A DNA stretch of 64,000 bases from an uncultured Gemmataceae bacterium (lineage in GTDB: Bacteria; Planctomycetota; Planctomycetia; Gemmatales; Gemmataceae): positions 384,001-448,000 of the forward strand of contig CAVVPN010000001.1 of NCBI GenBank assembly GCA_963750165.1. The letters are read 5' to 3'. Of this stretch, positions 12,151 to 16,072 are shown piece by piece. Within the stretch, counting starts at the first letter, position 1; each line of letters begins with the position of its first letter. A program made the position numbers and the translations under genes. The notes below the pieces were generated by a model. It was not told the DNA's origin, did no database searches, and worked only from the letters and a program-made list of their open reading frames with translations.

Positions 12151-13602
12151 TCATTTGCCGAGGGTGGCGAACAGTTCCATCAATTTGCGGTTGAGTTGCT
12201 TGAGCGTCACCGGCCGCACCAGGACCGCGATGGCGCCGCGGGCCTCGACCTTTTCCACCCAGCCCGCCTGGCTCTCCGACAAAATCAGAATGCCGGCGCA
12301 GGGGTGCTGCAGCCGCTTGGCCTCGGCCACAATGCGGTCGAACATGAACATGCCGTCCTGGCCCGTCGTGCCCGCGTCGATGATGAGCGCGTCATACGGC
12401 TGCTGGCGGAAGCGGTCGAGGGCCCGCATCGGGTCGGCGGCCAGGAAGACGCGGTAGCCCAACTCCTTGAACTTCTCGCGCAGCGCGTGCTGCAAGCGAT
12501 CATCGCTCTCGGCAATGAACAGCGACCGCACCACCGGGCCGGCGTCGGCCTTGCTCTTGCCCTCCAGGTCGCGGCGCACGTCGCGGATGGCCTCCAGCAA
12601 CTGCGAGGGTGTCTGATAGCGCTCCTGGGGGTTGAGCGCCATCATCGTCTCGACCAGGTGGAACACGCTGGGCGGCCCCTTGACCTCATCCTTGCCAATC
12701 GGCTTGACGTTGCGGAAGCGCTCGCGGTTCATGCGGGAGCGGGCGTCCCTGGTCGCCTCCAGCGGCGGCCGGCCGGTCAGCAGTTCGTACAGCACGCAGC
12801 CGAGGAAGTAAATGTCGCTGCGGATGTCGCCCGGGATGACGCCGGTCGCCTTCTCCAGGCCGGCGTAATCGACGGTGCGATCAACGTGCAGCGGGTCTTC
12901 GGTGTCCCTGGCCGAGAGGGCCGCGGGCTTCGGATTGTGTTCGCCGGCCAGGCCGAAGTCCACCAGCTTGGCGGTGCCCTGGCTGGAGATCAGCACGTTG
13001 GTCAACTTCATGTCGCGGTGCGAGACGCCTTTCGAGTAGGCGTGCGCCAGGCCGGCGATGGCGTCCTCCAGGATGCGCAGCGCCTCGGCGGGTTCCAGCT
13101 TCTTGCGGATGGCCAGGAAGTCGCGGAGGTTGCCGCCCTCGACGAACTCCATCACGATGTAATGCTGCTTGCCGACGGGATCGCGGTGGACGGCGAGGAT
13201 CTCGACGATGTTCGGGTGGCGCAGGGTCATCCCCATTTTGCCCTCGCGCTCGAACAGTTCGATGTTGTGTTTGTCGTCGCTCCACTTGCGGCGCAGCACC
13301 TTGAGTGCCACGACGGTGCCGGTGCGCGGGTCGTCGGCACGGTAGACGCGGCCGAAACTGCCCGAGGCGATCTTGTACAGCAGCCGATAGCCGCCGAGCA
13401 CGTAACCGTCGGTGTCCCCCTTGAGGAGCTTGCCGGTCTGGAACGGGGTCAGGATGTTGCGCCGCTCCATGACGCGCAGCCACGGTTCGGGCTCGCCGCC
13501 GCGCTGCCCGAGTTCCGCCCAGCCCTCCTCGGCCTGGTCCGGCGTGATCAGCCCCAGTTTGACCGCGAACTGGGCCAGTTTAGCTGCGTCAGCCGTCGCC
13601 AT
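12151..13602 (-). CDS. Hanks-type Ser/Thr kinase with C-terminal receiver-like domain
   Basis: GSFGRVY, VALK, HRDMKLTN, DFG and SDIY; C-terminal LFIAESD..GYRV..YDALIID..LVRP. Confidence 0.92.
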   Translation of the reverse strand: MATADAAKLAQFAVKLGLITPDQAEEGWAELGQRGGEPEPWLRVMERRNILTPFQTGKLLKGDTDGYVLGGYRLLYKIASGSFGRVYRADDPRTGTVVALKVLRRKWSDDKHNIELFEREGKMGMTLRHPNIVEILAVHRDPVGKQHYIVMEFVEGGNLRDFLAIRKKLEPAEALRILEDAIAGLAHAYSKGVSHRDMKLTNVLISSQGTAKLVDFGLAGEHNPKPAALSARDTEDPLHVDRTVDYAGLEKATGVIPGDIRSDIYFLGCVLYELLTGRPPLEATRDARSRMNRERFRNVKPIGKDEVKGPPSVFHLVETMMALNPQERYQTPSQLLEAIRDVRRDLEGKSKADAGPVVRSLFIAESDDRLQHALREKFKELGYRVFLAADPMRALDRFRQQPYDALIIDAGTTGQDGMFMFDRIVAEAKRLQHPCAGILILSESQAGWVEKVEARGAIAVLVRPVTLKQLNRKLMELFATLGK

Positions 13603-13789
13603 GGATTCTCACCGTCCGGAAGCAGCCCGCAGAAACCATTCGCCAACACCCTTGTCCCATTTTACCTAACCAGGGCGCCGTGCCAAGCGAAACTCTGCGC
13701 TGCGCCGACAGGTGAGTGACGCCGCTTACCCCCGAGCGGGTCCTGGCCGGGCGCGGCGGCGCGGCATACAACCGCGGTGTTGAGGGAAA

Positions 13790-14037
13790 CGGTGTCAGGG
13801 AGAACTAGCTTGGTGCTCTGCACCGTGGGCGATGTTGCGTCGCCCGAGCGGTTTGTTTGCGATTCGTCTCAGGGAAGGCTGTTTCAGGCTCGCCGTGGCC
13901 GTCGGGTTCGACTCGGGCGACGTCGGCCTGGGACAACCCCGCGGCCCGTGGTTCCGACATCGCCCGAGTCGAACCCGACGGCCGCGAGCCCGTGAGCCTT
14001 CCGTGACCCAAGCGGAGAAGTAGGTCTCCCGACACCG
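13790..14037 (+). ncRNA. Retron-type msr-msd ncRNA, unit 1
   Basis: a1/a2 inverted repeat 13790-13807 / 14021-14037; TAGC with putative branch G13808; hairpins GGTGC-TCT-GCACC and GGGCGATG-TTG-CGTCGCCC; long msd hairpin with a 30-bp stem 13897-13926 / 13954-13983. Confidence 0.8.
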
Positions 14038-14310
14038 CAGCGCGGACGGCCCGCGGCGGAGAACTAGCCCGGTGCCCTGCACCACGGGCGGCGTTGCGCC
14101 GCCCAGGCCGTTTGTCAATCGTTCGTCTCAGGGAAGGCTGTTTCAGGCTCGCTGTTCGGGTTACCCGATGAGGTAATTCTCATCAGCCTGGAACAACCGC
14201 GCGGCTCGCGGTTCTGATGAGAATTACCTCATCGGGTAACCCGGCGAGCCCGTGAGCCTTCCGTGACCCAGGCGGAGAAGTAGTTTGATGCCGTTGGGTC
14301 GTCCGCGCTG
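14038..14310 (+). ncRNA. Retron-type msr-msd ncRNA, unit 2
   Basis: a1/a2 inverted repeat 14038-14066 / 14281-14310; TAGC with putative branch G14067; hairpins GGTGC-CCT-GCACC and GGGCGGCG-TTG-CGCCGCCC; perfect 30-bp stem 14157-14186 / 14214-14243; followed by T6. Confidence 0.8.
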
Positions 14311-14488
14311 TTTTTTCCACAGTCCTTCCTTGACCGCCACCCACCCCGGCCGCCCAGCAACGAGAGCCCCGTTTACATTCCGCGCGGACTCAGCGCGCGC
14401 GAAACGGAGTGCTTGTTGACCGAGGGCGCGCGGCAGGGTCATCGGGTAGAATGGCCGCAGCGGTTTTCGTTGGCACGAGGAGCGAATC

Positions 14489-14782
14489 ATGAATACGTCG
14501 GTAACTGTGCAGGGGACACTGAAGCCCGATGGGACGCTGGAGCTGGATACCCGGCCAGAACTGCCGCCGGGCCGGGTCAGGGTCGTACTGCAACCACTGC
14601 CCGCCTCAGCAACAGCGCAGGAAGACTGGTGGCAGTACCTGCAGCGCGTGCGGGCCGAACGAGAAGCCGCCGGCTACCCTTTCATGAACGAGGCCGAAAT
14701 GGCAGCACATCTTCAGTGGCTGCGGGAGGATGACGACCGCATTGAGCGCATCTACCGGGAAATGGGGCAGGAGCAGTCCTGA
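14489..14782 (+). CDS. Putative antitoxin partner of the PIN toxin
   Basis: 97 aa ORF with GAGGAG RBS; stop overlaps the start of the PIN gene (TGATG). Confidence 0.7.
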   Translation: MNTSVTVQGTLKPDGTLELDTRPELPPGRVRVVLQPLPASATAQEDWWQYLQRVRAEREAAGYPFMNEAEMAAHLQWLREDDDRIERIYREMGQEQS

Positions 14783-15184
14783 TGCGCGTTTACTGCGATA
14801 GCGTCATCTTGATCTACTACCTGGAAGGAACGCCGCCGTTCAAGGCCCGGGCAGCGGCCCGGTTGGCGGCCTTGTGGGCCGCCGGAGACACGGTGGCGGT
14901 CAGCGACCTGGTCCGGTTGGAGTGCCGGATGCAGCCGATCCGATTCGGAAATACTTCTGCCCTCGCCGACTACGACTTGCTATTCGCCCAGCCCAATGTC
15001 GAGTGCGTACCCATCACGACGGCCGTTTTCGACCGCGCCACGTTGATCCGGGCCGCCCTCAATTTCAAGCTTGGCCGACTCCCTCCACCTGGCGGCCGCC
15101 GTCGAGTCCGGCTGCGACCGCTTCCTGACGAACGACACGCGGCTGTCCCGATTCTCCGACATCGCGGTGGAAGTGCTGCCGTAA
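14782..15184 (+). CDS. vapC: PIN-domain (VapC-like) toxin (frameshift near 15075)
   Basis: RVYCDSVILIY and LECR in the first frame; ADSLHLAAAVESGCDRFLTNDTRL in the shifted frame, ending TAA at 15184. Confidence 0.85.
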
Positions 15185-15322: not shown

Positions 15323-16072
15323 ATGACCAGGACGACAGCAACCGTGCTGGCGGCGATCTTTCTGGCCGTCGTGGCGACGAGCCTGCGGGCGCAGCAGACC
15401 GACAAGGAAAAGGAACTCGCCAAACAAAAAGCGGCGGCGGACAAGGCCCGGGAAGCCGACGCCCGCGCCCAGAACTTCAGCAACCTCAAACAAATCGGCA
15501 TCGCCGTCCACGAATTCTACGACAAGCAACAGACCCTGCCGCGGCACGCCATCTACAGCAAGGACGGCAAGACGCCACTGCTCAGCTGGCGCGTGGCCCT
15601 GCTGCCCTACCTTGACGAGAAGGCGCTGTTCAAGGATTTCAAACTCGATGAGCCGTGGAACAGCCCGCACAACCGCCGGCTCATCGCCAAAATGCCGAAG
15701 GTGTATGCGCCCGTGGTTTCGGGCAAAGCCGGCGCGGGCAAAACCTTTTACCAGGTCATCACCGGCCCCGACACGCTCTTCGACGGCACCAAAAAAATGA
15801 AGCTAACGGACATCCGCGACGGCACCTCGAACACCATCCTGGCGATTGAGGGCAAGAACGCCGTCACCTGGACCGCCCCGGAGGATGTGCCGCTGCCGCG
15901 GGGCAAGGGTCGGCTGCCGGCCATCGGCGGGCAGTTCAAGGATAGCATCGCCGTCCTGTTCGGCGACGGCTCCGTCCACACCATTCGCCCTGATCCGCCG
16001 GTCGAGGTGCTGCGTGCGGTGATCTCGCCCGCGGGCGGTGAGGTGGTGGATCCGCAAAAGCTGGAGCGGTGA
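15323..16072 (+). CDS. Secreted DUF1559-domain protein
   Basis: Signal peptide; SNLKQIGIAVH, LLSWRVALLPY, DEPWNSPHN, DGTSNTI and FGDGSV. Confidence 0.88.
   Translation: MTRTTATVLAAIFLAVVATSLRAQQTDKEKELAKQKAAADKAREADARAQNFSNLKQIGIAVHEFYDKQQTLPRHAIYSKDGKTPLLSWRVALLPYLDEKALFKDFKLDEPWNSPHNRRLIAKMPKVYAPVVSGKAGAGKTFYQVITGPDTLFDGTKKMKLTDIRDGTSNTILAIEGKNAVTWTAPEDVPLPRGKGRLPAIGGQFKDSIAVLFGDGSVHTIRPDPPVEVLRAVISPAGGEVVDPQKLER

Follow-up and report, generated by a model that had tools for sequence, protein, structure and literature searches.

Two locally orphan msr-msd units of a Gemmataceae bacterium and a type XIII retron operon that may serve them in trans

The window analyzed here, a stretch of 64,000 nucleotides (nt) from an uncultured Gemmataceae bacterium (assembly GCA_963750165.1, contig CAVVPN010000001.1, positions 384,001 to 448,000), carries two tandem units that look like the msr-msd noncoding RNA (ncRNA) genes of a retron, and no gene for a reverse transcriptase (RT) stands beside them. 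What are these units, and which enzyme copies them, if any does? A first-pass annotation had considered that they are served in trans by a distant RT, that they are relics left after RT loss or that they are linked to a neighboring PIN RNase. According to our analysis, both are real, intact retron-type msr-msd genes that are orphan only locally. The overall reading that we favor, with modest confidence, is that they are dispersed satellite ncRNA genes of one type XIII retron, whose variable stems would form a panel of baits.

Two retron-type units and their copies in the source genome

The units lie in tandem with a repeat spacing of 259-260 nt, and their parts are as follows (positions in the window).

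13743-13772, plus strand: putative promoter of the two-unit transcript (CTGGCC-18 nt-TACAAC; the -35 element departs from the family's TTG[CT])
13791-14036, plus strand: retron ncRNA unit 1 (222.6 bits with covariance model R1)
13791-13807 (5') and 14021-14036 (3'), plus strand: closing arms of unit 1
13808, plus strand: predicted branch G of unit 1 (TAGC)
13812-13824 and 13827-13845, plus strand: msr hairpins of unit 1
13868-13893 and 13984-14010, plus strand: msd base of unit 1
13897-13983, plus strand: variable stem of unit 1 (arms 13897-13926 and 13954-13983; 29 of 30 Watson-Crick pairs; conserved 27-nt loop)
14038-14316, plus strand: retron ncRNA unit 2 (229.1 bits with model R1)
14038-14066 (5') and 14281-14310 (3'), plus strand: closing arms of unit 2, followed by T6 at 14311-14316
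14067, plus strand: predicted branch G of unit 2
14071-14083 and 14086-14104, plus strand: msr hairpins of unit 2
14127-14152 and 14244-14270, plus strand: msd base of unit 2
14157-14243, plus strand: variable stem of unit 2 (arms 14157-14186 and 14214-14243; 30 of 30 pairs; sequence unrelated to the unit 1 stem)

Two blocks are common to the units, one of 98 nt (82%) and one of 40 nt (98%), and the inverted arms of 30-33 nt are unrelated between them. The folding z scores are -9.4 for unit 1 and -10.0 for unit 2, none of 200 shuffles being equally stable, and an Rfam scan of the window at gathering thresholds left both units unmatched, reporting only three tRNAs. The absence of an RT from the window, as first reported, was borne out by a scan for [YF][AVC]DD, which returned a single FVDD in an unrelated context, and by tblastn with both retron RTs of the genome, which gave no match at E <= 1. 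The putative promoter fails the family pattern TTG[CT]-N17-19-TAnnn[TC]; its TACAAC is also present upstream of four other copies in the source genome. Unit 2, which has no promoter of its own, is probably cotranscribed with unit 1.

A scan of the source genome (G000; 9.6 Mb in 12 contigs, 93% complete), which the first-pass annotation had proposed as a way to find more units, did reveal them: this ncRNA family, here family A, has seven copies at four loci, namely, two in the window, one on contig C3, one on C9 and three on C11. All seven consist of a closing stem, two msr hairpins and one long msd hairpin. In a structure derived from those same seven sequences, 98.5% of 517 cells pair, against 35-43% in slid controls. 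Both sides have changed in 36 of the 74 pairs overall and in 28 of the 30 pairs of the variable stem, and the first closing helix covaries while remaining 92.9% paired. The motif right after the closing stem is TAGC in 134 of 143 units, CAGC in 6 and TAGT in 3. The retron plan given in section 6 of PMC6868368 comprises closing ends, a branch G, msr hairpins and a long msd hairpin, and we find each of these in family A: complementary closing ends, the branch-G motif and a pair of msr hairpins followed by a long msd hairpin. The multicopy single-stranded DNA (msDNA) predicted from unit 1 is 161 nt long (z = -9.5) and that from unit 2 is 162 nt long (z = -12.1), where the length of ~160 nt is counted from the first base beside the closing stem as far as an assumed stop point just past the hairpin base.

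A type XIII operon, its RT clade and the dispersed repertoire

The three units on C11 head a complete type XIII operon, ordered as HEAT/ARM-BRCT (a frame of 1050 amino acids [aa]), an insert with a tyrosine transposase of the repetitive extragenic palindrome (REP) type, HEAT/ARM-WD40 (2134 aa), SWIM-WGR and RT. PADLOC identified RT_XIII (E = 3.5e-164), SWIM_XIII (E = 3.7e-189) and two HEAT-ARM_XIII genes (E = 0). For the RT, RT_XIII is the top model with 545 bits versus 322 for the next, and its intact frame of 462 codons harbors the motifs NAxxH, YADD and ITG. A feature of retrons that is missing is direct adjacency of ncRNA and RT gene: even at the operon 12.9 kb separate the RT from its closest unit, and the other copies are elsewhere, four of the seven on contigs other than that of the RT. 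Model R1, built from 21 units of six genomes with window unit 1 among them, scores the two window units within or slightly above the range of the operon units (222.2-226.6 bits). Service in trans by a distant RT, as had been suggested, thus finds a candidate in this cognate operon with three RNAs of the same family at its head. The expectation that such an RT would lack an adjacent ncRNA proved wrong, since the C11 RT has its three, though far upstream. The transposase inside the operon is REP associated (L038 15464-16300; G000:C11:2305463-2306299) and has tandem flanking repeats.

A second type XIII operon is located at G000:C3:791233-799450 (L042 3234-11451), and its RT is 45% identical to the C11 RT. 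It has an array of its own, formed by four msr-msd units of another family, family B (L042 7520-8610), each with a different stem of ~22 bp; family B occurs in 13 of 40 genomes, mostly in 1-6 copies beside its own RT clade. We therefore rejected the C3 RT as partner of the window units, as it has its own RNA family. The WGR-ARM gene of that operon shows a frame break at ~792800, which may be an assembly indel. Other RTs in the genome are an 839-aa protein of a different, unassigned kind with a weak RVT_1 match (C11:1627495-1630014; L006) and two that are group II-like, one at C11:1754752 and one at C11:809061-812864, where a recombinase-like gene has inserted and divides the RT.

RT_XIII was detected in 99 of 267 genomes of the order and in 97 of 251 of the family. 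We scanned 80 chosen relatives with R1, namely, 61 RT_XIII genomes and 19 negatives; the resulting counts ignore kinship, and related genomes are not independent. Exactly one RT that is 61-100% identical to the C11 RT is carried by 38 of the 61 genomes, and this group is here called clade A; every other type XIII RT in the sample is at most 50% identical. Family A is present in 37 of the 38 genomes with a clade-A RT, in 2 of the 23 with other RT_XIII only (G074, 10 units, fragmented; G137, one weak match) and in none of the 19 without RT_XIII. In at least 16 genomes of the family, and in 2 outside it, a unit with the orientation of the clade-A RT lies 11-13.5 kb upstream of it. Clade A received an SH-aLRT value (approximate likelihood ratio test of the Shimodaira-Hasegawa type) of 100 on a quick RT tree of 51 rows. 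In a genome pattern scan, which includes chance matches (e.g., L212, L256 and L258), the matches listed comprise named records of Gemmata, Fimbriiglobus, Frigoriglobus, Singulisphaera and Paludisphaera and also Nannocystis, Byssovorax, Bradymonadales, Desulfobacterales and Verrucomicrobia. Five of the genomes so recorded have 1-2 units each together with an RT of the same clade. At the level of sequence, these data support the conclusion that family-A RNA tracks one RT clade, of which it would hence be the cognate RNA. Viral contigs yielded one family-A unit (L318 3001-3162) beside a terminase-like gene, probably a prophage edge.

The copy number is lineage specific and ranges from 1 to 35 per genome. 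Full counts in six genomes gave 35 (G105, on one contig), 30, 29, 23, 14 and 11 matches, a few of them partial, and in the high-count genomes the copies are scattered over the chromosomes. Among the 143 units with sufficient flank, the promoter pattern given above is found upstream of 98 (4.7 expected) and a hairpin-T terminator at 75 (0 in shuffles). A stem could be called in 149 of 154 extracted units and was well formed, meaning at least 22 bp with at most two mismatches, in 136; 128 of these are 28-30 bp long, 105 are perfect and 109 are distinct.

Scaffolds and stems behave differently within G105, where scaffolds average 79% identity and stems 31%, and 14 pairs have scaffolds at least 90% alike yet stems at most 42% alike. 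When 16 flank-matched copies of G104 and G105 were compared, 9 had kept the stem (at least 93%) and 7 had unrelated ones (at most 55%), with none between. The operon-head copy carries five different stems in five congeners. One and the same stem can also occupy more than one locus, in two cases inside a single genome, and some stems are shared unchanged by three genomes. The promoter spacer is at least 67% identical in 9.5% of G105 paralogue pairs versus 0.3% of shuffled ones and 0.7% for the sequence upstream of the -35 element; the copied cassette begins at the promoter and sits between gene ends. Filled and empty sites occur among close relatives, one copy was seen decayed and no target-site duplication was present at the one filled/empty site compared. 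From the stem swaps and the cassette boundary we infer that stems move as whole units and that copies propagate at the DNA level instead of by retroposition of a transcript, since the copied unit includes an untranscribed promoter spacer. In two respects, the lack of a target duplication at that site and the inclusion of the promoter in the copied unit, the copies depart from a miniature inverted-repeat transposable element (MITE) or a retroposed repeat like a short interspersed element (SINE).

For traces of transcripts, public sequencing was queried with the operon-head unit of a relative, not with the window units, and no run contained more than 0.12 of the query words. One metatranscriptome provided 45 contigs on this unit, mostly on the msr. 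Seven of them end at 15775, joined to adapter, where the predicted branch G is 15776; as a hint only, such ends would be expected if the library RT had stopped at a 2'-5' branch. Two further runs gave 1-2 msr contigs each, and run X18 had no contig on the unit.

Content of the stems and the proteins that might read them

Dyads with arms of at least 5 are found in 71 of 109 stems, compared with 30% of dinucleotide shuffles (maximum 39%) and 13% of genomic 24-mers; the favored gaps are 0, 2, 4, 6 and 8. In 77 further stems the dyads amount to 47% versus 26%. Across 186 stems there are 188 6-mer palindromes against 114.5 expected, and the enriched words, which resemble restriction sites, are GAATTC (17 versus 2.2), ACCGGT (14 versus 2.3), TGCGCA (11 versus 1.3), GCATGC (11 versus 2.5) and GGTNACC (18 versus 2.6); CCCGGG is frequent but at its expected level. 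The seven palindromes most avoided by G000 appear 3 times in stems versus 10.7 expected (Spearman 0.49 over 35 words). The seven G000 stems match the rest of that genome at best at 18-20 of 24 positions, no better than shuffles; therefore, they are not copies of operators of the host. One 20-mer from each window stem gave 0 exact matches in viral contigs, among which phages of planctomycetes are probably underrepresented. The idea of host- or phage-derived spacers thus receives no support from these two comparisons.

Two recurrent words were observed in the stems. A GTACCCCT core is common to several genomes outside the family; cores of this type occur in the few-copy distant taxa L204, L211, L229, L254 and L272, with TACCCCT in L229 and GTACCCT in L211, and possibly represent an ancestral site. 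The word GGTTCGACTCGG of the unit 1 stem (13897-13926) recurs in G012 and G107 stems and partly in G105; it may resemble the T-loop of tRNA.

The SWIM gene of the C11 operon (L038 7091-8962) was modeled from 117 sequences with a predicted local distance difference test (pLDDT) score of 80.7. In the model, residues 52-360 match PCNA (Z = 14.3; root mean square deviation, 3.1; 218 aligned), the top 14 rows of that structure search are all clamps, Foldseek likewise gives a clamp match (E = 3.5e-7), and the WGR domain resembles that of PARP1 (Z = 9-12). With the SWIM finger (CxCx12CxH) at residues 512-529, the protein models as a PCNA-like clamp domain joined to a SWIM finger and a WGR domain, residues 360-550 being barely covered by the fold comparison. 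The ESM Atlas returned only unnamed or SWIM clusters, and no report of a clamp fold in this SWIM protein was found in the literature searched, in which subscription papers are mostly uncovered. A clamp grips duplex DNA without reading its sequence, a property well matched to stems that are constant in length but not in sequence, although a shared clamp fold establishes no function. The acidic motif that PMC7736814 likened to DEDE transposases starts at residue 128, inside the PCNA-like domain. A DDE transposase that moves the cassettes was rejected as a role for SWIM, given the clamps and WGR on top and the absence of an RNase H-type fold among the 50 rows listed.

We propose that the single RT encoded on C11 would bind each dispersed transcript in trans and prime at the branch G, and that the product would be an msDNA of ~160 nt made of a constant scaffold and, for each copy, a different 29-bp double-stranded stem. 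This first part, from transcription of every copy through its binding in trans by the one clade-A RT to its conversion into such an msDNA, is deemed very probable. The complex of RT and msDNA with the SWIM and HEAT/ARM proteins would then hold or encircle the stem, the stems would be baits for foreign sequence-specific enzymes, such as phage methyltransferases, endonucleases and repressors, and an enzyme acting on a stem would switch the complex on. We give an even chance to this second part, i.e., that the complex may grip the stem and that the stems may act as a bait panel for foreign site-specific DNA enzymes. Copies would spread as DNA cassettes, from promoter to terminator, and copies would trade entire stems with one another, msDNA being a possible donor. 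Only tentatively, and with more doubt than belief, do we extend this to a renewable, genome-wide bait library in which one RT and a clamp-like reader would command up to ~35 duplexes of 29 bp, with host sites avoided and a specificity as adaptable as that of an array.

Several observations weigh against this picture. At the operon, the first HEAT/ARM gene is broken near its end (C11 ~2306600), perhaps by an assembly indel, and has the transposase gene behind it, and no toxic effector domain was recognised by PADLOC, Pfam or structure-model comparisons of SWIM. In the survey, G074 has its 10 units without a clade-A RT being found and G133 shows the reverse, both being assemblies of ~1500 contigs. 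As for the stems, only one of the seven swapped G104/G105 pairs is matched on both flanks, stems less than 72% alike may still be kin, 3 of 34 G105 copies lack a full stem and G107 has a broken unit. The dyads could stem from hairpin template switching, and genome-wide site avoidance, measured in G000 only, would shape any sequence. The neighbors of the units (116 open reading frames [ORFs]) are mostly ordinary, heterogeneous genes and not defense islands. The effectors of the Ec86 and Sen2 retrons are reported to contact the methylated site, and such contact agrees poorly with a stem whose sequence is free to vary. The contig ends at 15775, finally, come from one run and from assembled contigs of other organisms, DNA is not excluded, and other ends fall at 15769, 15770 and 15781 (two contigs each).

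The alternative that survives best, although we hold it to be unlikely, is that the dispersed copies are selfish, nonautonomous repeats, so that function is confined to the operon-head copy and all others are MITE/SINE-like passengers of retron origin, which the system itself or recombination of the host would copy and whose stems are reshaped by hairpin mutagenesis. The wide, lineage-specific range of copy number, the filled and empty sites, the decayed copy and the heterogeneous neighbors would all agree with passengers. However, promoters and terminators are retained, the copied unit includes the promoter spacer and left no duplication at the one empty site, and stem length and pairing are kept while the sequence changes, with some stems identical in three genomes; moreover, leftovers are absent in 40 of the 42 genomes without the RT clade.

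Improbable as well is a domesticated host role, in which msDNAs act not in phage defense but as decoy operators for host regulators or as substrates of a repair or replication-stress complex with clamp, WGR and BRCT domains. Such domains are of DNA-repair types, the dyads, 10-18 bp long, have the look of operators, titration of DNA-binding proteins by engineered retrons is reported (10.1101/2023.09.27.556556) and, according to PMC7736814, type XIII follows the host phylogeny and some retrons are maybe domesticated. Against it stand the shuffle-level matches of the G000 stems to their own genome, the operon-head stem that differs in five of five congeners and the restriction of RT_XIII to 97 of the 251 family genomes. 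Relics of a lost adjacent RT, for which only the RT-less window speaks, are very improbable considering the intact cognate RT elsewhere (462 codons, YADD), window units that score as operon units do and the many dispersed copies in relatives.

Neighboring genes and relation to known retrons

The units are flanked in the window by the following features.

12151-13602, minus strand: Ser/Thr kinase-receiver gene, a conserved single-copy family gene (neighbor only)
14365-14412, no strand assigned: REP-like palindromic repeat, dispersed in G000 (50 blastn rows at E <= 0.01, both strands counted)
14489-14782 and 14782-15184, plus strand: VapB-like ORF and frameshifted PIN gene (neighbor, not part of the system)

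The divergent kinase gene is present as first described. Its orthologue was found in 36 of 39 genomes, and neither a unit nor vapBC accompanies it at any of the 29 other loci, so that synteny of kinase, ncRNA and vapBC, a comparison that had been suggested, did not hold; these loci in relatives also lack an RT. A PADLOC match of the kinase to PD-T4-6 (E = 2.6e-178) extends along the whole protein, which we set aside as a likely false defense call because it is a conserved single-copy family gene. The antitoxin-PIN pair does lie ~180 bp downstream on the same strand, but its PIN gene is frameshifted near 15072-15076: the PF01850 match (E = 1.9e-6) runs from 14782 onward, and the C-terminal part of PIN, with the stop at 15184, is in another frame. 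This break may be an assembly error, because other genes of the assembly also show frame breaks. No Pfam match was obtained for the antitoxin-like ORF. The TAGAAT -10-like element assigned to the pair exists at 14447-14452, but no TTG-type -35 element is found 16-19 nt from it, and it was not called in the promoter scan. A paralogous vapBC pair at C3:2937186-2937784 is distant from all units. One copy of the REP-like repeat also adjoins the C3 family-A unit. No PIN domain was detected among the 116 neighbor ORFs at E <= 1e-8 (142 picked, five genomes), a cut that could miss a short or broken PIN; therefore, the unit flanks were searched directly by tblastn, and no vapB or vapC homologue appeared beside the other units. 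That the ncRNA is a partner or antitoxin of the PIN RNase is thus hardly credible, since apart from proximity and shared strand nothing connects them, the T-run and the REP-like repeat intervene and the PIN frame is broken. By these sequence comparisons, kinase and VapBC are chance neighbors.

Type XIII corresponds to RT clade 10, which holds Mx162, Sa163, Mx65 and Ne144 (Mestre et al. 2020; PMC7736814). The C11 system resembles the description in that source in having an RT_XIII with a long N terminus, SWIM and HEAT/ARM proteins in one operon and the msr-msd plan, and the 162-nt msDNA of Mx162 is close to the ~160 nt predicted here, a likeness by type, size and geometry only. It differs in the 11-13.5 kb between ncRNA and RT, beyond a search "in the vicinity," and in having 1-35 copies per genome, own promoters and a hypervariable, swappable stem. 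Planctomycetes are absent among 7 of the 17 type XIII rows of the retron census, and no natural dispersed type XIII repertoire was reported in the literature searched, which mostly leaves subscription papers uncovered.

Three sets of systems invite comparison. For Retron-Nex1 (Ne160) of Nannocystis exedens, RT-less repeats were noted in 1997 and read as duplication or as retrotransposition by a distant RT (PMC6868368); where that source cites them, a cognate operon, variable stems and a repertoire go unmentioned, and our comparison is by description only. UG27 (10.64898/2026.09.22.753630) likewise has one RT and many structure-conserved, sequence-diverse ncRNA units that template short DNA hairpins. 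Its RT, a class-2 unknown-group enzyme, is phage borne and its units of ~150 nt form local arrays, unlike the chromosomal retron RT, branch-G anatomy and genome-wide copies found here. A precedent for the bait reading is offered by Ec86, Sen2 and Asa1/Squ1 (PMC12548924), whose msDNA has a site for a phage DNA-modifying enzyme; msDNA methylation triggers Ec86 (Dcm) and Sen2 (Dam). Those retrons have one ncRNA with one site beside the RT and known toxic effectors, whereas here there are many sites and no toxin domain was recognised.

In the usual description, a retron pairs a single ncRNA with an adjacent RT, and ncRNAs have been sought near the RT; in this family, one RT apparently serves up to 35 separate ncRNA genes. 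An RT serving distant templates would explain the RT-less myxobacterial repeats of 1997. Judged from sequence, the system is a well-supported variant of the type XIII retron, with a sensing role that would be possibly adaptable. From the clamp-like SWIM fold seen in the model one can picture in concrete structural terms how stems constant in length but not in sequence may be read, and a natural scaffold that would accept whatever 29-bp stem it is given in trans offers a ready-made plan for producing RT-DNA in multiplex. With this, the function of type XIII, the group of Mx162 and Sa163, becomes testable.

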